Origin: a virus
Taxonomy: Duplodnaviria > Caudoviricetes
Length of the DNA stretch: 39,858 nucleotides
Reading direction: 5' to 3' (one strand)
Virus record (IMG/VR): IMGVR_UViG_3300011439_000008
Coordinates: 1 to 39,858 of that record
Shown here piece after piece: positions 2,431 through 39,858 of this stretch. The notes beneath the pieces were generated by a model. It was not told the DNA's origin and ran no database searches. It worked only from the letters and a program-made list of their open reading frames with translations. Position 1 is the first letter of the stretch. Every line of letters begins with the position of its first letter. The position numbers and the translations under genes are program-made.

Positions 2431-2633
2431 TTCTCGATCCAATACTTACTAAGATTGGTATAAATCGGAGATATTTGCATTTGTCGAATCAGTTCATCAT
2501 CACTTTTATCATGGCAAAACTCACGGTTAAATTCTTTTACCTTTTTCAAAGCAAATTCGATCGAAACTTTTTCCACTTGGTCACTGTCAGGTTTTACCCT
2601 AAACGCCCTTTTCTGTTTGAATGCTTTTTTCAT
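2427..2633 (-). CDS. Hypothetical protein
   Basis: ATGA overlaps on both sides. Confidence 0.55.
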   Translation of the reverse strand: MKKAFKQKRAFRVKPDSDQVEKVSIEFALKKVKEFNREFCHDKSDDELIRQMQISPIYTNLSKYWIEK

Positions 2634-3001
2634 TTCTTAAATCTCCCAAGTTCCGCTAGATCATTGAGCATTCTGAGATAATCAGGCAAATTTTCCTTGG
2701 GATAAAACGCATGCCCACCGGCTTTGCGAAACTCCTCGGCCATGTCGTCATTGCCACCACTGCACATAAAAACGATGGTGCCGGGGTACTTCGCAAGCAA
2801 TTCCTTGGTAAAGTCCATGCCATCCATCACGGGCATGTCTAAATCTGTACTCACCACGTCGAATTTGTCTGGCGAGTAAGCCTCAAGACCTTGCTTGCCA
2901 TCTTCGGCAACCGTGACGGTCCACCCGAACTTGGTGAGACGCATATGCATCATGTCGTAAATAAGGGAATCGTTTTCAACAATTAAGATTCGTTTGGCCA
3001 T
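2630..3001 (-). CDS. Single-domain response regulator receiver (CheY/DivK-like)
   Basis: RILIVEND, VAEDGKQGLE, phosphoacceptor DLDMPVMDG, MCSG, FYPK. Preceded by AAAGGAG. Confidence 0.93.
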   Translation of the reverse strand: MAKRILIVENDSLIYDMMHMRLTKFGWTVTVAEDGKQGLEAYSPDKFDVVSTDLDMPVMDGMDFTKELLAKYPGTIVFMCSGGNDDMAEEFRKAGGHAFYPKENLPDYLRMLNDLAELGRFKK

Positions 3002-5357: not shown

Positions 5358-5635
5358 TAGGTGTCCCGTGCGGTGCCAATTCCAGACCGTGGTGCGGGTC
5401 CAGGTGTGTTACGGGGAAGTTCCGCCGAGGGGATACGTTCCCAACTCCATCCCGAGTACCACGTCCAATTAGGGTTATATCGTTCTACTACTTCTCCTCT
5501 GGGAACACCTTTCATAACTCTTCGGATCTTGGGTTGTTCAAATCCGAATTGTTGGAAGTGTTCTTGAGCGCTTCCCAATTCTTCTAAACCCGCCTGCACC
5601 ATCTGTCTGTCATCATCGTCAACCGGATTCACCAT
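5357..5635 (-). CDS. Hypothetical protein
   Basis: Likely start MVNPVDD at 5635 after AAGGGGG. Confidence 0.5.
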   Translation of the reverse strand: MVNPVDDDDRQMVQAGLEELGSAQEHFQQFGFEQPKIRRVMKGVPRGEVVERYNPNWTWYSGWSWERIPSAELPRNTPGPAPRSGIGTARDT

Positions 5636-5752
5636 CTTTATTTTCCCCCTTAGTAAGAGGCGGCGGGCCAAGCACGGATCGCAGCTTGAGATATGCCGAG
5701 CCCTTACGGGCACCCACCACCTTCGGTTGTCCACTCAACGCGGAGACCGATC

Positions 5753-5956
5753 CTAGTCAATATTCTCGTAAAAACGCCTCAACGCTTCCATCTGTTTGTC
5801 GCTCAGGTCCAGCCGATCGTCGAATTGCTCACGTAAAGATTCGATGAACGAGTGAACTTGATTGCCTTCGCTTTCAAAATAGATTTCCAGTTCCGAAAGC
5901 ATGTGCTCAATCAGTTTTTGACGTTCAATGCGTTTTTCGATTTGTGCCCGATTCAT
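5753..5956 (-). CDS. Small phage protein (F-x2-S-L...LSxKQ type)
   Basis: SFIESLREQFDDRLDLSDKQMEAL; abuts the SSB stop. Confidence 0.65.
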   Translation of the reverse strand: MNRAQIEKRIERQKLIEHMLSELEIYFESEGNQVHSFIESLREQFDDRLDLSDKQMEALRRFYENID

Positions 5957-6544
5957 TCAAAAACCTGCGTCATCATCGTCGTCACCGTCGCCGCTTGAAT
6001 CGTCTTCATCCGACTCGGTATCTTCCACGGCGTCAAAAACATCCTTAGGGTCTTTGCGGCCAGAAAACCGCTTCCCTTTTTTAATGTATTGGATGTTTTC
6101 CAACCCAAACGCAACACCATCTTCATAGGTGAAGGCATTTAATTCGGCCCGGACAAAATCACCGGCGAGCGCCTTGCCGTCGGCTTCGGTCAACTCCGTT
6201 TCCCCGTCCGCATCGACAACGCCCGGCGGATTGATGGCGTAGGCTGTGACATAAATGGTGTCTTTGTAGCCTTCCAAGTCTTTTTTCTCGTTTCCATCTT
6301 TAAACGTCTTGTGTTTAAATTTGGGCCACTTATCTTTATCCTTGCCCCACTTCTCTTCGATCGCGGCTCGGCGTGCTTTCTTAAGCGGCGTCAAGTCTTC
6401 GTTCTTGTCAAAAAGAAGAGTGGCACCGAAACGGGTCTTTCCCTTGTAAGTACGCGCCTTGAAGATGGCCGGAAAACTCAAGCGTCCCTCGGGCGTCACA
6501 CAACGTTTCTTCTCGCGGTATTTTTTCTTTTCTGCTGCATTCAT
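5957..6544 (-). CDS. Single-stranded DNA-binding protein (DUF2815 / T7 gp2.5-like)
   Basis: TPEGRLSFPAIF, FKDG, GVAFGLENIQYIKKGKRFSG, and an acidic tail ending in F. Confidence 0.9.
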   Translation of the reverse strand: MNAAEKKKYREKKRCVTPEGRLSFPAIFKARTYKGKTRFGATLLFDKNEDLTPLKKARRAAIEEKWGKDKDKWPKFKHKTFKDGNEKKDLEGYKDTIYVTAYAINPPGVVDADGETELTEADGKALAGDFVRAELNAFTYEDGVAFGLENIQYIKKGKRFSGRKDPKDVFDAVEDTESDEDDSSGDGDDDDDAGF

Positions 6545-6584
6545 TTGGTTTGCCTTTCAATGCATTTAATTTGCGTTATTTAAA

Positions 6585-6611
6585 GTGGCGGTGCCGACTT
6601 CTCACCGCCAC
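6585..6611 (-). terminator. 9-bp GC-rich hairpin (weak terminator or stabiliser)
   Basis: GTGGCGGTG-N9-CACCGCCAC followed by TTTAAAT on the minus strand. Confidence 0.55.
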
Positions 6612-6621
6612 CCCGACAAAA

Positions 6622-6714
6622 CTATTCAAGTTCAAAAAGTTCTAGCTGTCTCGGCTCGAAAAGATCGAGCTGGCTTTCATCATTTAGTACGATCTCATTT
6701 GTTTCATCCTCCAT
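6622..6714 (-). CDS. 30-aa acidic micropeptide with tandem beta-clamp-binding motifs
   Basis: Manual translation gives MEDETNEIVLNDESQLDLFEPRQLELFELE*. GGAGGAG lies 8 nt upstream. It fills the gap between two co-oriented genes. Confidence 0.8.
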   Translation of the reverse strand: MEDETNEIVLNDESQLDLFEPRQLELFELE

Positions 6715-6732
6715 GTTTTCCACTCCTCCACT

Positions 6733-6975
6733 TTAAGTCTTTTTAACGTGCGAACCTCGGACGGCACCCGTTTGATGAAGTGCTGAAACGCATATTCGGT
6801 AAAGCGCCATGCCCCAATGTTCAGCCGTTGTGTATTGGTCGGGAGAAATTTTCTTCAGTCGCTCTTGGTCAATGCCTTCTAAGAAAACGTTAAACCCCAC
6901 CCCGTCTTCTTTGGGGCCGGTCTCCTCGATAACAATCATCACCCGCTTTGAACCTGGCTTTGCTTCAATCGACAT
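6733..6975 (-). CDS. Hypothetical protein
   Basis: 80-aa ORF overlapping the nuclease stop. Confidence 0.6.
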   Translation of the reverse strand: MSIEAKPGSKRVMIVIEETGPKEDGVGFNVFLEGIDQERLKKISPDQYTTAEHWGMALYRICVSALHQTGAVRGSHVKKT

Positions 6976-8134
6976 CTTTGAACACCTCTTTAATTCGGTT
7001 TACCGCCGGCCGCGTATCATCGTCCGGCACCATGGTGGTGCCACTGGAAACAACGGCACATCGCTTTTCCACCCATTTCTTGCCGGCAAGTTTTTCCATT
7101 TGAGAGGGCGATTTAAGCTTAGATTCGAAAGCATCCGCACCATACGTGAGCGCGGCATACCGCTGCACCACGTGGGGCCGAAGCCACTCGCGCCGGCCGC
7201 GTTTGGCAACGAGTTTGAAACCTGGGATTTTCTTCCCCTTCTCCAATTGGTGATAGGCGAAGTTCCGCACCTCTTGTGCCCAGGTGTCTAGGAGATCCAA
7301 AGCCGTAAGCGTCTTACCTAAAATCTCTGGGTCATTTTGCCAGCCCGTGGGGAATTGGACCGACCCGGTCTTAGGGGCAAATGCCACGCGAGCTTTTTCA
7401 AGCGCTCGCTTGGAAGTCTCCGGGCAAATAAGTTTTGCCGGACACCAATGGCAGTGTGACCCAGAAACAAGGGGGGCGTCTTTTTTGCGAGCCGCTTTAA
7501 TTGCCTCTGAAAACTTTTTTTCCCACGAGAGAAGTTCCTGCATGGGCATCTCCCACGTGCGAATGGGTGTCTCCGGGGCATCGGCCGCACGCGGTTGAAT
7601 GATGGTGAGCCGAGCCACATCAAACGCATAATCATATTGTCGAGCCACGCCGATAGCGTAGGCGATGAGCTGAGGATTTTCTTTCACTTCCACCCAAACA
7701 CCGGCACCATATTTATAATCCATGATGTCCAGTGCGCCGAAGTCTTCAACGATCACGATATCGGCGGTACCGTAAAAATCTTTGTCAATGTGGGTGTTAT
7801 CGGATTTCACTTCAAAGAAGATTTCCCGCCCCTCTTGTTTTTTGCCCTTAACCCGGAACGCATGGTTTAACGCCATCTCCGCGTGTACCACCATCTGCAT
7901 GCCCCACTTCTTCCGGGCTTTATCGGCGGCCTGTAAACGGTTGTCCCACCTCTTCCCTAGATACTCCAAACACGCGTGAGCGGCGGTCCCTTCGGCGGCG
8001 TATTTACTCTCAGCCTGCAAAGGTGCCTTTTTGGATAGCTCGATTGAGCCGGGGCACGCCATGTATCTCTCAGCGCTCGACGGTGCGAAGAGCGCATGAC
8101 TTTTTTCGTCGCTCACGCGTGTTGGATTCTTCAT
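6965..8134 (-). CDS. Cas4-like PD-(D/E)XK exonuclease (DUF2800 type)
   Basis: HALFAPSSAERYMACPGS, GTAD, DYKYG, QLIAYA, HCHWCPAKLICP. Confidence 0.92.
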   Translation of the reverse strand: MKNPTRVSDEKSHALFAPSSAERYMACPGSIELSKKAPLQAESKYAAEGTAAHACLEYLGKRWDNRLQAADKARKKWGMQMVVHAEMALNHAFRVKGKKQEGREIFFEVKSDNTHIDKDFYGTADIVIVEDFGALDIMDYKYGAGVWVEVKENPQLIAYAIGVARQYDYAFDVARLTIIQPRAADAPETPIRTWEMPMQELLSWEKKFSEAIKAARKKDAPLVSGSHCHWCPAKLICPETSKRALEKARVAFAPKTGSVQFPTGWQNDPEILGKTLTALDLLDTWAQEVRNFAYHQLEKGKKIPGFKLVAKRGRREWLRPHVVQRYAALTYGADAFESKLKSPSQMEKLAGKKWVEKRCAVVSSGTTMVPDDDTRPAVNRIKEVFKDVD

Positions 8135-8140
8135 TGCTTT

Positions 8141-8671
8141 TTACTCACTGACTTTCTCAAGCGCGGCTTCATAGTCGTCCGGGCTCAAATCGCGAATCGC
8201 CGACACGCCGAAACTCTTCAAGACCTTGAGCGCCTTCTTACGATCATGTTCCTTGGCGTAAGCTTGAAACGCCTTGGTGAGTTTCGCTATTTGCTTTTCG
8301 GATAAGGCGTCTTTTTTGCCTTTCCCTTTTTTGGGGCCGTCGTCTTCATTTTCGTCATCGCCACTGTCTTCGTCCGATTCTTCGTCTTCATCATCGGCAT
8401 TCTCCTCTTCGTCGTCCGAGTCAGCGTCTCCATCGTCGTCACCGTCGGCGTCGTCTTCGTCGCTAGCTTTCTTGGACTTCTTTTTAGTTTTTTTCGGGGT
8501 CTCTTCCGCTTCGTCTTCATCAGCATCGGTGTCATCGTCTTCAGCTTTGCCACCCTTCAACTCTTTGAGCGCGGCTTTCAAATAGGTGACTTGCACCTCC
8601 AAAGCGCCGAGCGTCTTTTCAAGCGAATTGACGTGCGCGGTGAAGAGCGTTTTTTGTAGTTTCGCGGACAT
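8141..8671 (-). CDS. Replication-module protein with a highly acidic linker
   Basis: N-terminal coiled coil, D/E tract, and C-terminal LKSFGVSAIRDLSPDDY domain of the type found just upstream of DUF2800 genes. Confidence 0.75.
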   Translation of the reverse strand: MSAKLQKTLFTAHVNSLEKTLGALEVQVTYLKAALKELKGGKAEDDDTDADEDEAEETPKKTKKKSKKASDEDDADGDDDGDADSDDEEENADDEDEESDEDSGDDENEDDGPKKGKGKKDALSEKQIAKLTKAFQAYAKEHDRKKALKVLKSFGVSAIRDLSPDDYEAALEKVSE

Positions 8672-8687
8672 GTCGTGTCTCCTGTTT

Positions 8688-10247
8688 CTAAAGCGCCAAC
8701 GTTACCTTTTGCTTTCGCAAATTCGTTTCCATCTTGGCGCGGTCGATGGAATTCTTGAATACGAGATACTGCACCAACACTTCATTCTTTTGGCCACGCC
8801 GATGTGCTCTATCGGATGCCTGCATGTTGTCGCCGGGCACCCAGGAGAATTCAACGAAGATGACCAACTGTGCTTTGGTGAGATTAAAGCCTAAACCACA
8901 CGCTTGAATGTTGCCAACTAAAATCCGGTGGCGCTTTTCTTTTTGAAAGGTCTCGGCAATCTTAAATCGCTCATCCCGTTTGGTGTCGCCCGAAATCACA
9001 AGCGGCCGATACTTCCGAAGCCCGTTAACCAACAACTTCACCACGTCACGGTGATGAGCAAATACGATGGCGCTATCCACCGACTCCATACAGTCCCGGA
9101 TGTACTTTAGCGCGGGGTTTACCTTCACCATGCCTAGCTCCCGCAGATAGGTGGAAATCTGATCATCTTTGCCGGGGTCGCGCTCCAACTTCTCCGGTGA
9201 CAGCTCGCGGAGGATTTTCGCGTCAAGCTTTGCCACCTTAGCCGGTAAGTTTTCACCGATGATCACGATTTCTTCCGTCTTCGGGGGTAAACCCAAATGA
9301 CTCTTGTCCACCGAGAGCATGAAATTTTTCTGGACGTTCTTTTTCAGTTCATCAAAATTGCTTTCACCCGTGTAATCCCATGCCCATCGTCCGCCGTAGG
9401 TTTCCACTTTTCGTGGGTCACAGTACCGATGCGCAAACGCGTGGAAATCTCTGAAACCGATTGTCTCCGGAGCTAACCGTTTCAACATCGGATACAGTTC
9501 CATCGGGCGATTGGGCATGGGCGAGCCGGACATTAAAATGGTACGGGGGAAAAATCGGGTTAACGCTTTCTCGCCGAGCAACGCCAGTGTGCGTTTTGCT
9601 TCGGGGCTTTTGTACCGATGCGCTTCATCGATAATTACCGTTGAAGCCAATCGGTCACGTCGCAAAGATTGAAACAGGTGATAGGTCTCGGCGCGAATTA
9701 AAAAAGAATCCGGTACAAGGAAAATGTCATAGGCCAACCGAATGTCACTGGAAATGGATTTGCCGTTACACACGTAAATTCTTTTGTCCGGGCACCACTT
9801 GTTCAATTCATTTAAAACGTTCAAACACAATCCCGGCGGGGCCACGTAGACAACGCTTTTATCCCCTTTGGCGTGGATAGCATTAATGATGAGGGCCGCG
9901 ACAATGGTTTTGCCCACGCCCGGCCGACCGGCAAGGTAAGAGCGGTTTCGATCCAACGCCCACCTGGCCATGGTGAGTTGTTTCTTATCCGGTGACAAAT
10001 TCTTTGGGTAAGGGATGCGGCCCGTCCAGGGCGTCACCGAAATCATCACGCGGTTGATTTCTCTTTTCGCGGTAGAATCAGCGTAGTCGCGCAGACGGGC
10101 CGCAACCGGGTAAGAAGGAGTGAAAAGCACTCCGTCTAGATCTCGGTGCCAACCGCCGAAGAGCATCTCCAAAGGAAGAGGCGTACCTCGGGATCTATTA
10201 AAAATGAAATATTTGCCGTTAAAGGTTAACTGCATTTCAGCCCACAC
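8688..10247 (-). CDS. SNF2/HARP-like superfamily 2 helicase
   Basis: GRPGVGKT, IIDEAH, SGSPMPNRP, GLGFNLT, QASDRAHRRGQ. Alternative ATG at 10235. Confidence 0.93.
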   Translation of the reverse strand: MWAEMQLTFNGKYFIFNRSRGTPLPLEMLFGGWHRDLDGVLFTPSYPVAARLRDYADSTAKREINRVMISVTPWTGRIPYPKNLSPDKKQLTMARWALDRNRSYLAGRPGVGKTIVAALIINAIHAKGDKSVVYVAPPGLCLNVLNELNKWCPDKRIYVCNGKSISSDIRLAYDIFLVPDSFLIRAETYHLFQSLRRDRLASTVIIDEAHRYKSPEAKRTLALLGEKALTRFFPRTILMSGSPMPNRPMELYPMLKRLAPETIGFRDFHAFAHRYCDPRKVETYGGRWAWDYTGESNFDELKKNVQKNFMLSVDKSHLGLPPKTEEIVIIGENLPAKVAKLDAKILRELSPEKLERDPGKDDQISTYLRELGMVKVNPALKYIRDCMESVDSAIVFAHHRDVVKLLVNGLRKYRPLVISGDTKRDERFKIAETFQKEKRHRILVGNIQACGLGFNLTKAQLVIFVEFSWVPGDNMQASDRAHRRGQKNEVLVQYLVFKNSIDRAKMETNLRKQKVTLAL

Positions 10248-10264
10248 ACTCGGTTAGTTCTTTA

Positions 10265-10293
10265 GGCGTACTTGCAGGTTGCACGATTGTCAA
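10265..10293 (-). promoter_or_regulatory. Candidate leftward promoter in the divergent region
   Basis: Perfect TTGACA (10288-10293, minus strand), N17, then a weak -10 (TACGCC). Confidence 0.4.
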
Positions 10294-10330
10294 GCTCTTG
10301 GTAATGAAAAATGAAAAGGAGAAATGAAGT

Positions 10331-10702
10331 ATGCGTCTTTCCCATTGGATCAAAGAACAAGGTGGCACGGCAAAGGTCGGCCAGCTCCTCGATATCAAGC
10401 GTAACGCCGTCTATGCCTGGCTCGCGGGCACCGCCATCCCACGCCCCATCACCATGCAAAAGCTTGTGGTGAAGTCCAAGGGCAAGGTGACCTATGACGA
10501 TATCATCAACGAGTATAAGGCGAACCTTGCCCGACGCAAGGAAAAGCGTGCCGCCGCTCGCCCGGCCAAGGGTGCCAAAAAACCCAAAGTCAAAAACCCT
10601 GCGCCGGCCAAGACACCGAAGACGGTGGCGAAACCCGCGAAGCTGAAATCGTCCAAGCCTGCGAAAGCTGCAAAAAAGAAAAAGGTTGACCCAGGCTTCT
10701 AA
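10331..10702 (+). CDS. Cro-like HTH protein with a Lys/Ala/Pro-rich tail
   Basis: LSHWIKEQGGTAKVGQLLDIKRNAVYAWLAGTAIPRP...SKGKVT; first gene of the rightward arm. Confidence 0.8.
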   Translation: MRLSHWIKEQGGTAKVGQLLDIKRNAVYAWLAGTAIPRPITMQKLVVKSKGKVTYDDIINEYKANLARRKEKRAAARPAKGAKKPKVKNPAPAKTPKTVAKPAKLKSSKPAKAAKKKKVDPGF

Positions 10703-10756
10703 TCCCGTTCATTCTTTTTGTTCACGTCTTAACTCTCTTGTGTGGGGGAACTCTCA

Positions 10757-12994
10757 ATGTTGAAAGAGGGCAAACGCCTTCATGGGCTCGGCTTCGCCAT
10801 TCATTGGTTGAAAGCCAACTCGAAGATGCCGGTTGAAAGCGGTTGGACAACGGGTGAACGAAAAGAGTGGGGTTATCTCAAAGACCACTACCGTTACGGC
10901 CTTAACATGGGTGTCCGTCTTGGAAAGCCAACGCGCTTCCCGGACGGCACCCATTTGGCTGTCATCGACTGCGACGTTAAAAGTGAAAAGTACCGATCCG
11001 AGATGGAAGAGAAACTGGCGGAACTGGGCATCACTCACGCCCCGCAAGTTTCCAGCGGCCGGGGCAACGGATCTCGCCACCTCTATGTGCGCACGGCAAA
11101 ACCCGTGGAACCGTATCGCTATTCGCAAAGCGGTAAAAAGGTTCGCGTCTCGATGCCGTCTTCCGCACCGTCTCGCCAAGAAAAAGAAACTTTATCGGAA
11201 GCAGATTTAAAACAAGGCATCCGCCTTCGTTACGCCTGGGAAATCTCCGTCATGGGCACAGGCCAACAGGTGGTCTTACCGCCCTCGATTCACCCGGACA
11301 CGGGCAACACCTATGAATGGGTGAAGCCCCTGGACGCCTGGGAAGAAATCCCCTTGGTGAAATTAAGCGGCGCTACCGAAAAGCGTGACCGCCCCTGGGA
11401 AGAGTTTGAAGACAAAGCCAGCATCTTTACACCCGTACCGATTGATTACCTTTCGTTACGTATCCCGGATGAAATGGTAGATTTGATTTTATCAGGTGTG
11501 GGATGCCAAGACCGAAGCGCGTCGCTTTATAAAATCACCATCGCTCTTCTTAAGCATCGTTATTCGGATGATGAAATCCTTTCCATTCTTACAGACCGCG
11601 AAACGTACCTGGGCGAGACCGCTTTTGATCACGGGCACACACAATCGCGCGCTCGCGCCGCACAGTGGGTGAAGAAATACACGCTCGCACGCGCCAAGCG
11701 CGAGACGGCCGCAAGTCTTGCGTTCAAGGAAAATGTGGTTGAAGAGCGCCTGGACGACGTGGCGGCCGAAAAACAAGCGAGGGCACTTTTACCGCAAGAC
11801 TGGAAGGATAAGCTAGAGCGCTCTAGTGAACAAATGGGCGGAAAGCCCAAGCCCACGTTTGAAAACATCCGCCTGATTCTGCAAGGCGTGAGCGGTGTGG
11901 ATGTGTTCAAATACGATGACTTCACCTTCACCATCTATTGCGGGCACGACACACCTTGGGGCGGGAAGGCCAAAAAGGAGTTGGCCGAAATCGATTTGGT
12001 GCTCATCAAGAGTTGGCTTGCGAAAGATTATCGCATGGAACCTTCGATCAATTTAATTCTGGAAGTGGTCCAGAAAATCGCGCATCAAAATCGCTACCAC
12101 CCGATCCGTGACTACCTCAAGCGCTTGTCTTGGGATGGCACTGAACGGCTTGACAACTGGCTTACGGATTACATGGGAGCAAAAGGGCCGAAGGAGTATG
12201 TCCAAGCCATCGGGCGAAAGACACTCGTTGCAATGGTGGCCCGCGTGATGCGTCCGGGTTGTAAGTTTGATCACATTCTAATTTTGGAAGGTAAGCAGGG
12301 GTGTGGGAAATCCACCGCTGTACGGACTTTGGCCGAGCCATGGTTTTCAGATGCCTACATCAACGTGGGTGACAAAGACGCAGTGCTAGCGATGCGCTTG
12401 GCGTGGGTCATGGAAATAGGTGAACTCTCTTCGATGAACCGAGCGGACCTAGACATGATGAAACAGTTTACGTCTCAGGCGGTCGATCGTATCCGCGTTC
12501 CTTACGGGCGAGTGGCTGAAAGCTTTCCCCGCCAATCCATTTTCATTGGGACAACGAATTCTTCGGAGTACCTCAAGGATACCACAGGGAACCGCCGGTT
12601 TTGGCCGGTCCAGGTGAAGCAATGTCGGTTTGATGAGCTGGCCAGAGACCGCGATCAACTTCTAGCGGAAGCCCTCGCGGCGTACAGCCTTGGGGAACCT
12701 TTGTTTCTTGAACAACGTTCGGTGGAAGAGATTGCAAGCATTGAGCAAAATAAACGGCTCTTTGTGGATGAGTGGGTGTCCATTTTGGATGAATTCCTAC
12801 AGAAACCCAATGAAAACTTTCCGAAGGAATTTACCATTGGTGACTTGTTCGGGGGCAATGGGCCATTCCCCAATTCCAGGTGTGAACGTAAAGACCAAAT
12901 GCGTGCGGGAGACTGTTTACGTCTCCTCAACTACACCAAGCGGAAAATGCGCGTAGGTAACATCTACAAAAACGTGTGGGTTAAAATTGGGTAA
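10757..12994 (+). CDS. Bifunctional primase-polymerase fused to a VirE/VapE-like helicase
   Basis: NMGVRLG, VIDCD, GSRHLY, VVLPPSIHPDTG, Walker A EGKQGCGKST, GTTN, DTTGNRRFWPV. ATG at 10757 follows GGGGG. Confidence 0.93.
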   Translation: MLKEGKRLHGLGFAIHWLKANSKMPVESGWTTGERKEWGYLKDHYRYGLNMGVRLGKPTRFPDGTHLAVIDCDVKSEKYRSEMEEKLAELGITHAPQVSSGRGNGSRHLYVRTAKPVEPYRYSQSGKKVRVSMPSSAPSRQEKETLSEADLKQGIRLRYAWEISVMGTGQQVVLPPSIHPDTGNTYEWVKPLDAWEEIPLVKLSGATEKRDRPWEEFEDKASIFTPVPIDYLSLRIPDEMVDLILSGVGCQDRSASLYKITIALLKHRYSDDEILSILTDRETYLGETAFDHGHTQSRARAAQWVKKYTLARAKRETAASLAFKENVVEERLDDVAAEKQARALLPQDWKDKLERSSEQMGGKPKPTFENIRLILQGVSGVDVFKYDDFTFTIYCGHDTPWGGKAKKELAEIDLVLIKSWLAKDYRMEPSINLILEVVQKIAHQNRYHPIRDYLKRLSWDGTERLDNWLTDYMGAKGPKEYVQAIGRKTLVAMVARVMRPGCKFDHILILEGKQGCGKSTAVRTLAEPWFSDAYINVGDKDAVLAMRLAWVMEIGELSSMNRADLDMMKQFTSQAVDRIRVPYGRVAESFPRQSIFIGTTNSSEYLKDTTGNRRFWPVQVKQCRFDELARDRDQLLAEALAAYSLGEPLFLEQRSVEEIASIEQNKRLFVDEWVSILDEFLQKPNENFPKEFTIGDLFGGNGPFPNSRCERKDQMRAGDCLRLLNYTKRKMRVGNIYKNVWVKIG

Positions 12995-13013: not shown

Positions 13014-13227
13014 TGTGGATACCTGGGGATACCTAAAGGATACCTTTTGAGCCGAGGTATCCACACTTTTTACCCCACCACGTATAGGGAGATTTGCCAC
13101 AATTTTGCGTTTTGTGGATACCGTGGATACCTATCTAGTTATAAATATAGCAATGTTACTGACAACGTGCGCGCGCGCGAGGCTTTTATATATAGTTTTG
13201 GCGAAACAGGTATCCAAGGTATCCACA
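13014..13227. repeat. Iteron array and putative replication origin
   Basis: GGATACC at 13017, 13027, 13038, 13116, 13125 and the inverted GGTATCC at 13056, 13209, 13218, around an AT-rich core with a (GC)n run. Confidence 0.75.
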
Positions 13228-13240
13228 AGGGGAACAAAAA

Positions 13241-15663: not shown

Positions 15664-15804
15664 ATGGACGGCCGGCATCTCGAAGCATTTTTCAAATTCA
15701 TTTTGGTGTTGGGGTTGTTGGTTGCGGTTTCCACGGGGGCCATCGGCTATTCATGCGGCAAAGATAATCGAGCCGAGCAAGAAACCGAATTGGGCGACGT
15801 ATGA
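15664..15804 (+). CDS. 46-aa single-TM peptide not in the ORF track
   Basis: MDGRHLEAFFKFILVLGLLVAVSTGAIGYSCGKDNRAEQETELGDV*. Preceded by AGGGGG; ATGA overlap with the next gene. Confidence 0.65.
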   Translation: MDGRHLEAFFKFILVLGLLVAVSTGAIGYSCGKDNRAEQETELGDV

Positions 15805-16871
15805 ACTGGTTTTCTAAGATCAATCTCATGTGGGTTTTCCTGGGCGTCAACATTTGTGTTTGGTTTGCGGCGCTCTTAGCCACACGATTTCACGTGTTGG
15901 TGGGGGTGCTGTTTGCGGTGCTCACGGTAAGCGCCTTGTGGACGTTTGGATACCGGTATGATCAATTTGCCGCGCACCCCGAAATAGAATGGCTGTTGCT
16001 CGCGCGGGATAGTGCGCTTACGTTTGCCGTGCTGTTTACGACCGCCGTGTTCTTTGCGTCGCAAAGCAAACGCTCTGAATACGCCCTTTTGGTGGGTGTA
16101 TCCGTGATTTGGTTGGTGAGCTGTCTCAGCACCACGGTACAACTCTTTTACCCTTGGGAGCTGCGCCGGGGCTTGTCGGGCGATCCATCGATGAACGGGT
16201 GTTTGATTGCTATTACCCTTCCCGTTTTTTTGGAGCTGCACAGTCGTAATCGGGGGAATGGTGTTGTGGGTGCAAGCGCTATTTGGTGGACCGCTCTTTG
16301 CGTGTTCGCGTGTAACGCCAGTGTTCCGATAGGCGCGTTGATAGTCGTTACGCTTGCGGCGATCTCCTATCTGAAACTCCCGATCCGAAGTCTTCTCCTT
16401 ATGGGTGGTTTCACCGCGACGTTTATCCTCGCAGTCGGAGCACTCTTTCAAGGCCAACAACTTTTCAGTTCCAGTAATCGTTTCTACACGTGGGGTACGT
16501 GGCTCCACCATTGGTGGAACACGGATGCGTGGACGCGGCTATTTGGGTTTGGCACGGGCACGGGCATTTATCTTTTGCCGAAAGCCCTTGAGCAAGCAGG
16601 CTCAGATATCCGCTTGCTTTGGATTCACAACGAGTATCTGCAAACCCTTTTCGAAAACGGCACCGTTGGCTTAGCACTTTTAGTTTCGTTGGTGGGCGTG
16701 GTGCTTGTGAAAGCTCGCTCGCGGCCATGGCTGTTTTGCAGTGTTGCGGGTTTGGCCGCGTATTCGTTTTTCAATTTTCCAGCACGCCAACCGTTTCATG
16801 CGTTGGTGGGTGCAGCACTGATTTGGTTTACGTTTACTCCGGGGGAAAACTATGGTCGGCAAGACGCCTGA
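15801..16871 (+). CDS. O-antigen ligase / Wzy_C-family polytopic membrane protein
   Basis: About 10 hydrophobic segments; SSNRFYTW, LFGFGTG, WIHNEYLQTLFENGTVG, FNFP. Confidence 0.85.
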   Translation: MNWFSKINLMWVFLGVNICVWFAALLATRFHVLVGVLFAVLTVSALWTFGYRYDQFAAHPEIEWLLLARDSALTFAVLFTTAVFFASQSKRSEYALLVGVSVIWLVSCLSTTVQLFYPWELRRGLSGDPSMNGCLIAITLPVFLELHSRNRGNGVVGASAIWWTALCVFACNASVPIGALIVVTLAAISYLKLPIRSLLLMGGFTATFILAVGALFQGQQLFSSSNRFYTWGTWLHHWWNTDAWTRLFGFGTGTGIYLLPKALEQAGSDIRLLWIHNEYLQTLFENGTVGLALLVSLVGVVLVKARSRPWLFCSVAGLAAYSFFNFPARQPFHALVGAALIWFTFTPGENYGRQDA

Positions 16872-36135: not shown

Positions 36136-36363
36136 ATGGCGGGGATTAAAACGGAAACCTGGGTAGCGTGGATTGCAGCGGTATTTGTGGTGTCGGTGGG
36201 CTCGCTTTTTACGGCCATGAATTTCGCGTATAGCACGTTTGAAACGATGAAGCGGGCGGATGATAAATACGCCGCTTTTCAAAAACAGATTGACCGGATC
36301 GAAGACAAAGTAGACATCATCGGCGATTTTCCAAAAGAACAACGCCGACCCGCGAACCGTTAA
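36136..36363 (+). CDS. Single-TM coiled-coil protein, putative holin or lysis accessory
   Basis: WVAWIAAVFVVSVGSLFTAM followed by QIDRIEDKVD; preceded by AAGGGGG. Confidence 0.5.
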   Translation: MAGIKTETWVAWIAAVFVVSVGSLFTAMNFAYSTFETMKRADDKYAAFQKQIDRIEDKVDIIGDFPKEQRRPANR

Positions 36364-37142
36364 AGGCAAGTGGCGTCGGCACCACCTTGGTTATTTCCGA
36401 TCGGCACCATTGGGCTGGACGTGAAGCCCGCGTAGTAACACCGAGCTGCACCACCCAGGTTGTTGCCGATCACGCGGCCCATCTGCGTGCCGCCCGACAC
36501 CGTGCCGTTGGCGTTACTGTCTGTTACGACACCCCCGCTTTGACTAATACCCACGATGCCGCCCGCGCGGGAATTCACTCCGCCCGCAAGCGTAATGGTA
36601 GCCTGGGAAGTTGAAAAAGCCACCGTACCGTAACTCTCACCCACGATGCCGCCGACTTTGCTTGTGCCTTTCACCAAACCGGAAAGGATGTGAACGCTGT
36701 TGATGAGCCCGCCCGCGTTCATGTATCCCGTCACCGCACCCACACCCGAACCACCTTGAACGTTCACGTTAGTGAGCACCAAATTTTCAATGGTGCCGCC
36801 CGCGAGTTGGACGAAGAGCCCTTGGGTGCCGCTGAGGTTGGCGATCGTGTAGCCTTGGCCATCGAATTTACCGACGAAGCCCGGGAGTGAAACCCAGGTA
36901 GCGGCCGAAAGATCCAGGTTCGCCGTGAGTTTGAAGTTATCGACGTTGTACGCGCCCGAGATCCGTTTCAGTTGATCCACGGTGCAAATGAGCCACGGTT
37001 CACTTACCGAACCGGTGCCGCCACCAAAGGGGTTGCCGGTGGTGTCGCAGTTCGCTTGCGCGGCCTGGGTGTTTCCGGTTTTCGGAACCGGGTTGCAACC
37101 GTTAAGAAGAGCTACCATCAAAACCAAAATTACGTACTTCAT
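36360..37142 (-). CDS. Lipoprotein with GLUG-type beta-helix repeats
   Basis: MKYVILVLMVALLNGC lipobox; GGTGSVSEPWLICT, FDGQGYTIANL; repeats VGAVTG, VGGIVG, AGGIVG. Confidence 0.85.
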   Translation of the reverse strand: MKYVILVLMVALLNGCNPVPKTGNTQAAQANCDTTGNPFGGGTGSVSEPWLICTVDQLKRISGAYNVDNFKLTANLDLSAATWVSLPGFVGKFDGQGYTIANLSGTQGLFVQLAGGTIENLVLTNVNVQGGSGVGAVTGYMNAGGLINSVHILSGLVKGTSKVGGIVGESYGTVAFSTSQATITLAGGVNSRAGGIVGISQSGGVVTDSNANGTVSGGTQMGRVIGNNLGGAARCYYAGFTSSPMVPIGNNQGGADATCL

Positions 37143-37680: not shown

Positions 37681-37856
37681 AAGACCTTGGTGGGGATGAG
37701 CGGTGCTATTTTCTGTTTCACTTCTTTCACCTTGATCCAGCCTTCCACCGGGACCGTACTAATTCGTTGATCCCACTGTGTAAAGTTCATCCCCATCGGT
37801 ATCGCAAACGGTTTAATCCAAAACGTCCGTGCTTTTGGCTTTTGCCTCATCGTCAC
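37590..37856 (-). CDS. Small zinc-finger protein
   Basis: CADCG...LCGGC; GTGA overlap with the polymerase stop. Confidence 0.5.
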   Translation of the reverse strand: MTMRQKPKARTFWIKPFAIPMGMNFTQWDQRISTVPVEGWIKVKEVKQKIAPLIPTKVLCADCGLVSSLAAKREDRLCGGCARSVGIL

Positions 37857-39832
37857 CCTTTCTTGTACCTAAAACCCGTCCACCCCTTCACTTTGATCGG
37901 GATACCTTTGCCCCACGGGGGAAGCTCACCCATGATTCGCTCGAATTCTTCTAGCGAACCTTCGCCGATTTTTTTTTCGTCCAAAATTTCATCGTGTACC
38001 TTGATGAGCGTTTCATAACCTGCATCATCAAGACGAATCGTTGCCTCTTCCATGAAGTCCCGTGCGGTGGCTTGGACGATGTTTTCGGTGAGCTTCCCGC
38101 CATAGGTAGAACCATTGATCCATTTTTTCGAGACTGAATCAACCCCCCAATGCCATAGTTCCGGAACTTTTTCGCCCCACGGAGTGTGCTTCCACCGAAT
38201 GGTGGGACCGAAGTAGGCGAGCCGCCGGCCACTCGGAAGTTCCACATACAGAAACTTCCCTTTGACGAACCACTTGGTGCGATTGATCGTGTACGCTTTG
38301 CCCGGATTCATCACTGCCGCAATTGCGGCACGCTCTAGATTTTTCCAGAGCATCACAACAAAGGTGTGACGTTCGCGGTAAATCTGCACCGCACGTTTCG
38401 CCAGCGCTTCCGTCACGGGCATGCCGTATTGTTTGCAGGTGAGAAGGAATTTTTTCCACCCCATCCCGAAGCCCAAACCCAAGATGGCGCGTTTACCGAC
38501 ATCCCGTTGAGCGGAAGTAACTTCAGACGCTGGGATGCTGTAGATCTCCGCCGCCATTTCCACGTAGGGGTCTACCCCACTCGAAAAGAGCCTAAGACCC
38601 ACTCGGTCGCCCGCTAGCCAAAACACCACGCGGGCTTCGATCGCGTTAAAGTCACCACAAAAGAGCCGGTACCCCGGGGTGGCCTGGATCATCCCACGGA
38701 GCGCACTGGAAAACGCGGCCATGGGGTTTCCGAAGAGGGCACGTACCCAGGCTAGATCTCCCGTTGACAAGGCCTCTATAAGCGATTCTAGATCCCTAAC
38801 GGTGCCTTGGGGGAAGTTGTGCACTTGCAGACCGGTGCCCGCTTCCCGCCCGGTTGACGCGCCGTGGTACATGAGGTTATCGCGGACCCGCGAATCAGAC
38901 CTTGACCTAAGATCAAAAACCGTATATTTGGCCGTCGAAGTTTTAGAAAGAGCTTGACGGATTTCTAATAATCGTCTTGCGGTCCCAGGGATTTTTGTTT
39001 CCAGGATATCGGCGATGGTCTTGGCCTGCATGTTGGCCAAGGGAAGCATTTCAACATCGTTTAAATACTTTTTAACCGCGTCTCGCTGAGATGGTCTTAG
39101 CCCGGTCTTTTCCTGAAACTCGCGAGTCAGGTTCACTGTCTCTTCACTCATCATCCGGAGCACTTTTTTCACCGTGGAACGATCCACATGAATGCCCCGA
39201 AGATTGAGCTTTTGATTAATTTGCCAAATCCGCCGTTCTTTTTCACTTAGCTCCGGAAGAGTGAGAAACAACTCCACCTCGGCGTCCACGTCGCGCTCGC
39301 AGTAAAGAGTCAGCCGGCGCAACCCTTCCGGGTCGTTGTTCCACACATCCGGATTTTTCTTGGTGGGCTTTTGCGGCTTGCAGTGCCGCCGGATGAGCAA
39401 GTCACCCTCTTTATCCTTTTGGTGTTTAAGCTCTAGAACGTGGCACGCTTTTTCCAACGCGCGTGGGAGTGCATGAGTGGCGGCCTGGGCGGCGGTGCAA
39501 AACCATTTCTCAAGCGGGACTTTTTCACGCAAAACGTGCTGGGTAATAACTTGTTCAAAGTAGGCATTGTGTGCGCCGATTCGATCCGCTTCACCACGTA
39601 GATATTGCAACAGTTCTTTTTTGCTACCGTGTCCGATACGGGGGCACCAACTTTTTGTTTTAGATTTTTCGATTTGTTTCTTGGTGCCGATACGCCAGGC
39701 GGCACAAAGAATCTCAGTAGAAGGGTGAACCGCGTATTCCCAAGCACCTACACCGATCTTTTTAGACTGGGTGCGGAGTTGCGCTTCCGAACGGGTTTCA
39801 TAATCCAAGATGAAATAGAGTGGATCTCTCAT
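37853..39832 (-). CDS. Family A DNA polymerase (APSE-like) with a 3'-5' exonuclease domain
   Basis: Exonuclease motifs LDYETRS, AHNAYFE, YCERDV; motif A DFNAIEAR, motif B RDVGKRAILGLGFG, motif C VHDE. Confidence 0.96.
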   Translation of the reverse strand: MRDPLYFILDYETRSEAQLRTQSKKIGVGAWEYAVHPSTEILCAAWRIGTKKQIEKSKTKSWCPRIGHGSKKELLQYLRGEADRIGAHNAYFEQVITQHVLREKVPLEKWFCTAAQAATHALPRALEKACHVLELKHQKDKEGDLLIRRHCKPQKPTKKNPDVWNNDPEGLRRLTLYCERDVDAEVELFLTLPELSEKERRIWQINQKLNLRGIHVDRSTVKKVLRMMSEETVNLTREFQEKTGLRPSQRDAVKKYLNDVEMLPLANMQAKTIADILETKIPGTARRLLEIRQALSKTSTAKYTVFDLRSRSDSRVRDNLMYHGASTGREAGTGLQVHNFPQGTVRDLESLIEALSTGDLAWVRALFGNPMAAFSSALRGMIQATPGYRLFCGDFNAIEARVVFWLAGDRVGLRLFSSGVDPYVEMAAEIYSIPASEVTSAQRDVGKRAILGLGFGMGWKKFLLTCKQYGMPVTEALAKRAVQIYRERHTFVVMLWKNLERAAIAAVMNPGKAYTINRTKWFVKGKFLYVELPSGRRLAYFGPTIRWKHTPWGEKVPELWHWGVDSVSKKWINGSTYGGKLTENIVQATARDFMEEATIRLDDAGYETLIKVHDEILDEKKIGEGSLEEFERIMGELPPWGKGIPIKVKGWTGFRYKKG

Positions 39833-39858
39833 TGGATCTCGTGGGGTTGCACCCACTG
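39736..39858 (+). repeat. Terminal direct repeat, right copy
   Basis: Identical to 1-123. Confidence 0.97.

Follow-up and report, generated by a model that had tools for sequence, protein, structure and literature searches.

QL[S/D]LF or QLxLF is carried by Pol II, Pol III alpha and epsilon, Pol IV, Pol V, Hda, and MutS/MutL, in which the motif tethers a folded enzyme to the β-clamp, DnaN (PMC11139829). According to this source, the clamp consensus is Q-aliphatic-x-[L/M]-[F/L], QLxLF is the motif class of highest affinity, and its third position accepts various residues, with Asp slightly favoured. The flanks of natural motifs are mostly acidic, the rim of the clamp pocket is basic, and several motifs in one partner lead to a higher apparent affinity. 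The two clamp pockets belong to separate subunits, which surround a channel of ~35 Å. Isolated motifs bind at ~micromolar affinity, whereas the Pol III core binds the DNA-loaded clamp at < 5 nM. Engineered peptides with a single motif, Ac-QLDLF and MGPRQLDLF, act as bare motif competitors, the latter inhibiting the growth of E. coli when cloned (PMC11139829).

Phage proteins and bacterial toxins also act on the clamp. Twort Gp168 and G1 Gp240 are small staphylococcal phage proteins inhibiting the host β-clamp; as folded oligomers they fill the DNA channel without occupying the pocket, and they have no motif (PMC8565349). MuC of phage Mu has two clamp motifs, and its overexpression is lethal through the clamp (PMC12867686; bioRxiv 10.1101/2025.01.04.631326). 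However, MuC is a transcription activator with its motifs at opposite ends, and it uses the clamp rather than blocking it; overexpressed MuC causes over-initiation with the clamp depleted from Hda, and elongation is not blocked (PMC12867686). SocB of Caulobacter (PMC9690074) and RipA of Streptococcus pneumoniae (PMC12795458) block replication via the same clamp pocket. They are chromosomal toxin-antitoxin proteins with an antitoxin, neither motif-only nor phage lytic genes. SocB and RipA are precedents for pocket targeting, and MuC is one for a two-motif phage protein. The original prediction knew of no described phage peptide consisting of clamp motifs only, and we likewise found no natural one in the literature searched (mostly non-subscription journals). 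Mycobacteriophage screens naming clamps deal with phage-encoded clamps, not motif peptides, and a review of phage small proteins does not mention the clamp or DnaN.

Here we describe a 30-aa ORF with two QLxLF motifs in the replication operon of an uncultured phage. The window, the whole stretch of DNA that was analyzed, is the entire virus record of 39,858 bases, which is complete and has direct terminal repeats (a 123-nt repeat). The record was found in one freshwater-sediment run, possibly its source. The ORF and its surroundings contain the following features.

8688-10247, minus strand: SNF2-type helicase.
8141-8671, minus strand: acidic 176-aa gene between the helicase and DUF2800.
6965..8134, minus strand: DUF2800 PD-(D/E)XK exonuclease, in the same operon, upstream of the peptide ORF.
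6733..6975, minus strand: 80-aa gene, a stand-alone member of an unnamed family, directly upstream of the peptide ORF.
6723..6729, minus strand: Shine-Dalgarno sequence GGAGGAG, 8 nt 5' of the ATG.
6622..6714, minus strand: 30-aa acidic peptide ORF with two QLxLF motifs.
6658..6672, minus strand: clamp-binding motif 1, QLDLF, residues 15-19.
6634..6648, minus strand: clamp-binding motif 2, QLELF, residues 23-27, with PR just before.
6582..6614, minus strand: hairpin with a 12-bp stem (3 G-U), 7 nt past the peptide stop, with a weak U tail.
5957..6544, minus strand: Gp2.5-like SSB (PF10991, phrog_112), downstream of the peptide ORF.
37853..39856, minus strand: phage family A DNA polymerase (Pol A), without a clamp motif.

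The translation at 6714-6622 confirms the predicted tandem QLDLF-EPR-QLELF and assigns it to the minus strand. The placement in the replication operon just upstream of SSB also holds, as DUF2800, the 80-aa gene, the peptide ORF, and SSB follow one another on that strand. The genome wraps through the 123-nt terminal repeat, with the Pol A gene placed across it. The minus strand also carries many small genes beyond SSB, and the plus strand carries a Cro-like gene, a primase-VapE helicase, terminase, and capsid. The 176-aa protein contains a long Asp/Glu tract, and its one matched relative is in the viral locus of the closest syntenic phage (L009).

The sequence features of the ORF suggest a real small gene that is probably expressed. 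Its Shine-Dalgarno sequence is as strong as had been claimed: GGAGGAG at 6729-6723 pairs with the anti-SD at -9.3 kcal/mol, rank 3 in strength among 25 gene starts tested. An in-frame GTG at 6723 overlaps this sequence, which makes the ATG the more likely start. The ORF starts 18 nt past the upstream stop and ends 77 nt ahead of SSB. The in-frame codon log-odds of 0.19 compares with 0.16 ± 0.10 in 625 real-gene windows; of 1022 non-coding windows free of stops, 0.4% attain this value, and the score is negative in the five other frames. The hairpin after the ORF is present as described (6614-6582, -20.7 kcal/mol, z -3.4). It was not called by the terminator scan and has no Rfam match; it is possibly a weak terminator or a 3' stabiliser. 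A second assembly, which probably derives from the same reads, is identical letter for letter over 6000-7500. The ORF had been reported as unannotated, which needs correction: the exact 30-aa product has already been called in public collections, although in a single contig only. The peptide contains 11 Asp/Glu and one Arg among 30 residues, a composition that points to a disordered, unstructured-looking chain. It has no domain or family match, including DNA-binding activator, toxin, or antitoxin families.

The ORF shares its reading frame with the 80-aa gene upstream, with one TAA and six codons between them, a link that had escaped the original prediction. Such a shared frame could mean that the peptide is merely the split-off tail of the 80-aa gene, and we considered this very improbable. 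A profile search with the read-through frame against 1.84 billion representatives returned 62 proteins, namely two own products, five long repetitive proteins matching over a short stretch, which were dropped, and 55 proteins of 67-127 aa. All 55, well under 200 aa, align to the 80-aa part; most of them end where the 80-aa protein ends, and none contains a clamp motif (0/55). At four viral loci with the 80-aa family, sited among packaging, terminase, portal, or head genes, no motif ORF lies downstream. Together with the peptide's own Shine-Dalgarno sequence and the TAA kept in the second assembly, the motif-free relatives largely refute the split-gene reading, and we rejected it. The family of 55 relatives has the core MIVIEETG...FNVYLxG...AEFWG. 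The 80-aa protein has no Pfam, PHROG, or NCBIfam match, and all its ESM Atlas leads are sub-threshold.

The tandem clamp motif is statistically unusual. QLxLF occurs twice in the six frames of the whole genome, both times in the peptide ORF. In 1500 order-5 Markov genomes the mean number of QLxLF was 0.79, and two within 15 residues were seen in 0/1500. The two motif copies are separated by a 24-nt period with 16/24 nt identical, and they look like an old 24-nt duplication rather than a fresh DNA slip. Over six codons (the motif plus one), the copies differ 0, 0, and 4 times at codon positions 1, 2, and 3, and over the eight-codon units 1, 1, and 6 times. This third-position pattern may point to selection but is no proof; it is only suggestive since choosing the ORF by its motifs forces part of the pattern. 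The main source of spurious QLxLF motifs appears to be the antisense frame of Lys/Glu-rich genes. This artefact is ruled out for the peptide ORF, because it is co-directional with its neighbours and has no long ORF on the opposite strand.

We scanned sequence collections for analogous motif peptides. The tandem pattern with the same spacing gave seven loci in viral contigs, one a true QLDLF pair and six QL[D/E]FF low-complexity frames. The true pair, QLDLF-GNP-QLDLF with an 8-residue period (L005 / L234, 3001-3039), lies within a frame of 2013 codons on a viral contig of 64 kb. A loose tandem pattern, applied to 4/64 parts of the viral contigs, showed in-frame spacing in 97/122 matches. We discarded this enrichment as support, as the matches are L/F/Q-rich frames, almost none with an SD-led start. 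We infer that they resemble antisense frames of Lys/Glu-rich genes, which appear to dominate the loose scan. An acidic tandem pattern (first codons CAG-CTN only) gave 16 loci in the whole collection and no small peptide that stands alone; L239, the best candidate, was dropped because it is antisense to a 652-aa gene. A pattern of Shine-Dalgarno sequence, ATG, and motif, run over 31/64 parts, was in frame at 74/119 loci, of which 28 are in ORFs of 60 aa or less. None of these 28 short ORFs in the 31/64 parts has two motifs, and several overlap longer genes (context of at least 12 of the 28). By these scans, single motifs are common in phage proteins, often near the N-termini, and a stand-alone tandem peptide is rare.

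Some proteins met in the scans deserve description in their own right. L232 and L240 (about 2501-2550) contain polymerase-like phage proteins in 688-codon frames with an internal QLDLFEP, which suggests that some phage family A polymerases may use the β-clamp. At L233 (2501-2553), two consecutive genes overlap; the first has QLELF-GVAA at its end and the second QLDLF at its start. L290, L291, and L344 (about 2501-2680) are phage genes of 56-58 aa with one QLDLF close to the N-terminus; of these, L291 and L344 are homologous, and both retain the motif.

Relatives of the peptide were not found by any search. In the profile search of 1.84 billion representatives, which is insensitive at 30 aa, the peptide stretch matched only itself. 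Its tblastn search gave no match in plasmids and one in cultured phages (E 2), which was dismissed as antisense to a gene. The ESM Atlas gave no usable match, and scanning viral contigs with SSB and with DUF2800, each as a single protein, gave no relative. The loci with a related SSB comprised 79 viral loci, 13 metagenome loci besides the own record, one genome, and two annotated loci. In these loci, SSB is at most 49% identical and the order DUF2800-SSB-Pol A is kept. The gap between DUF2800 and SSB is empty or contains unrelated small genes, and in the closest syntenic phage (L009) DUF2800 directly adjoins SSB. Tandem QLxLF was found in 0/99 related loci (1.38 Mb), where five small SD-led frames fit a broader motif, none as QLxLF. 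Among related whole records, 0/50 matched the peptide, with the own genome detected as a positive control. Motif counts across 69 related records were no higher than those of reversed-pattern controls (20 vs 35 in 20 records and 43 vs 52 in 49 records). The two closest SSB relatives are 58% identical, encoded on a 42.6-kb contig, and 52% identical, and the neighbouring DNA was read only in relatives of at most 49% identity. The peptide gene is a singleton in these searches. Conservation in related phages had been proposed as a check, and the missing conservation does not refute the prediction at such distances of the relatives reached.

The phage has its own family A polymerase, as had been stated, and a clamp domain was not detected in its genome (controls were detected in 10 and 11 of 14 genomes; a divergent clamp could escape the search). 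A domain search with detected controls found no tyrosine integrase or serine-recombinase domain in the phage, and the minus strand scanned over 5500-11000 has no sigma-70 promoter. A host search against prokaryote genomes gave one short distant contig only, and the major capsid had no match among cultured phages. The best matches of Pol A, at ~37% identity, are spread over many hosts. A stand-alone response-regulator receiver domain (PF00072) is encoded in the phage early region (2630-3001, minus strand); its homologs are at most 46% identical and gave no host signal. Just 5' of terminase, the plus strand encodes a membrane protein of 356 aa that weakly matches O-antigen ligase (Wzy_C; 15801-16871). 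The 260-aa lipoprotein-like gene at 36360-37142 (minus strand) has a signal-like N-terminus with Cys and weakly matches the N-terminal repeat region of M26 protease, and its product is possibly an exclusion or surface protein. The AT-rich gap after the primase-helicase gene contains a 38-nt inverted repeat (13112-13228; 79% complementary, 41 nt apart), possibly an origin or a regulatory site.

The peptide can be compared with the described clamp ligands. It has the same exact highest-affinity consensus as the bacterial motif proteins, twice and with acidic flanks, but unlike them it has no other domain. It shares the bare motif with Ac-QLDLF and MGPRQLDLF, and PR precedes its second motif as it precedes the motif of the latter; those peptides are engineered with a single motif, whereas this one is natural, tandem, and phage-encoded. 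The peptide is too short, acidic, and motif-based for the Gp168/Gp240 type, and no PDB sequence matches it at E 10; as predicted, it is not an inhibitor of the kind of Gp168, which fills the DNA channel (PMC8565349). With 30 aa and no match to a DNA-binding activator family, it also falls outside the Mor/MuC activator class. As regards toxin-antitoxin pairing, the neighbours are SSB and the unnamed 80-aa gene, which is found elsewhere without the peptide, and there is no match to a toxin or antitoxin family.

We propose that the peptide is a motif-only decoy occupying the protein-binding pocket of the host β-clamp, with a probability of roughly 0.55. Both QLDLF and QLELF match the clamp consensus, and the QLxLF class, the residue at the third position, the acidic flanks, and the multiple motifs fit the binding rules in PMC11139829. 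In the proposed mechanism, the peptide would be translated together with the replication genes, and each QLxLF would enter the DnaN pocket with the acidic flanks assisting. The contribution of the second motif is limited by geometry. A three-residue linker spans ~11 Å at most by our own estimate. This is too short for both pockets of one ring, so that the second copy would instead rebind one pocket or join two rings. The weaker clamp clients, such as the clamp loader delta, Hda, translesion polymerases, MutS/MutL, and ligase, would be displaced first and clamp loading would be hit, and at a high peptide level host replication may be slowed. The phage Pol A, helicase, and SSB are presumed to be clamp-independent; for Pol A, this is judged from the missing clamp motif.

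The original prediction of a minimal competitor that displaces host polymerases is thus retained in part. The sequence anatomy suits a ligand of the clamp pocket, but displacing Pol III to stop host replication is the weakest step when judged by known ligands, with < 5 nM for the Pol III core against ~micromolar for isolated motifs. Because of this affinity gap and the over-initiation caused by MuC, the weaker clients and clamp loading would be expected to be affected first.

Other explanations of the same ORF have to be weighed. The peptide may be an adaptor whose motifs bind the host clamp while its acidic N-terminal 14 residues bind a phage enzyme, such as Pol A, the helicase, or the DUF2800 nuclease. 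We regard this as unlikely, but the most plausible among the rivals. Its ORF is placed among replication genes and QLxLF is absent from every other phage frame, and the family A-like polymerases of L232 and L240 indicate that phage polymerases can hold the motif. However, related phages possess the same SSB-Pol A module but lack the peptide, so the module evidently works without it. Furthermore, the N-terminal stretch is short and of low complexity, and two motifs are present where one would suffice. Alternatively, the ORF may be a leader or coupling ORF that acts by being translated as far as the hairpin, thereby adjusting read-through into SSB, whatever peptide it encodes. The very strong Shine-Dalgarno sequence and a significant hairpin within ribosome reach, 7 nt beyond the stop and inside the 77 nt leading to SSB, agree with a leader. 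Two perfect motifs with codon divergence confined to third positions do not, and the hairpin escaped the terminator scan; we consider a leader improbable.

About equally improbable is a young neutral ORF, in which one chance QLxLF and a 24-nt internal duplication were picked out of a very large motif-read scan. The ORF is a singleton, relatives show variable insertions between DUF2800 and SSB, phage proteins often carry a single QLDLF close to the N-terminus, as at the 74 in-frame loci, and the 24-nt period is still visible. On the other hand, 6/8 differences between the eight-codon units fall at third positions, which is rare under neutral decay after duplication, and the strong Shine-Dalgarno sequence and gene-like codon use are those of a gene. 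Acidic aromatic tails are a common phage device, and the peptide, with 11/30 acidic residues and spaced Leu and Phe, might mimic another partner, e.g., an SSB-tail pocket, a protease adaptor, or a defence sensor, with the clamp consensus a chemical coincidence. The SSB of this phage does end in an acidic tail with a terminal Phe. The peptide has no terminal Phe, unlike SSB tails, and both copies keep Gln and the exact spacing of the clamp consensus, so we rate such mimicry slightly lower still.

The decoy reading, if correct, has consequences beyond this phage. The pocket of the clamp is a conserved hub that bacteria cannot do without, and it is a target for antibacterials. Gp168, the phage clamp inhibitor with a solved structure, acts at the DNA channel, and chromosomal toxins and synthetic peptides are known to compete for the pocket. 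If the peptide binds, it would be a new form of clamp-pocket inhibitor, natural, tandem, motif-only, and phage-encoded. This would provide a minimal third route to clamp inhibition and show how evolution tunes flanks and valency against the host clients. If the decoy reading is false, what is left is a small orphan ORF that occupies a variable position within a widespread replication module. As a broader and tentative idea, which we hold with less confidence than the decoy itself, phages may have repeatedly evolved motif-only micro-decoys that titrate DnaN, of which this peptide would be a bivalent form rebinding the pocket or cross-linking clamps. If such a class is true, its genes would be mostly overlooked, being below annotation cut-offs and without shared homology, and short-linear-motif mimicry would be a means of host takeover in bacterial viruses.
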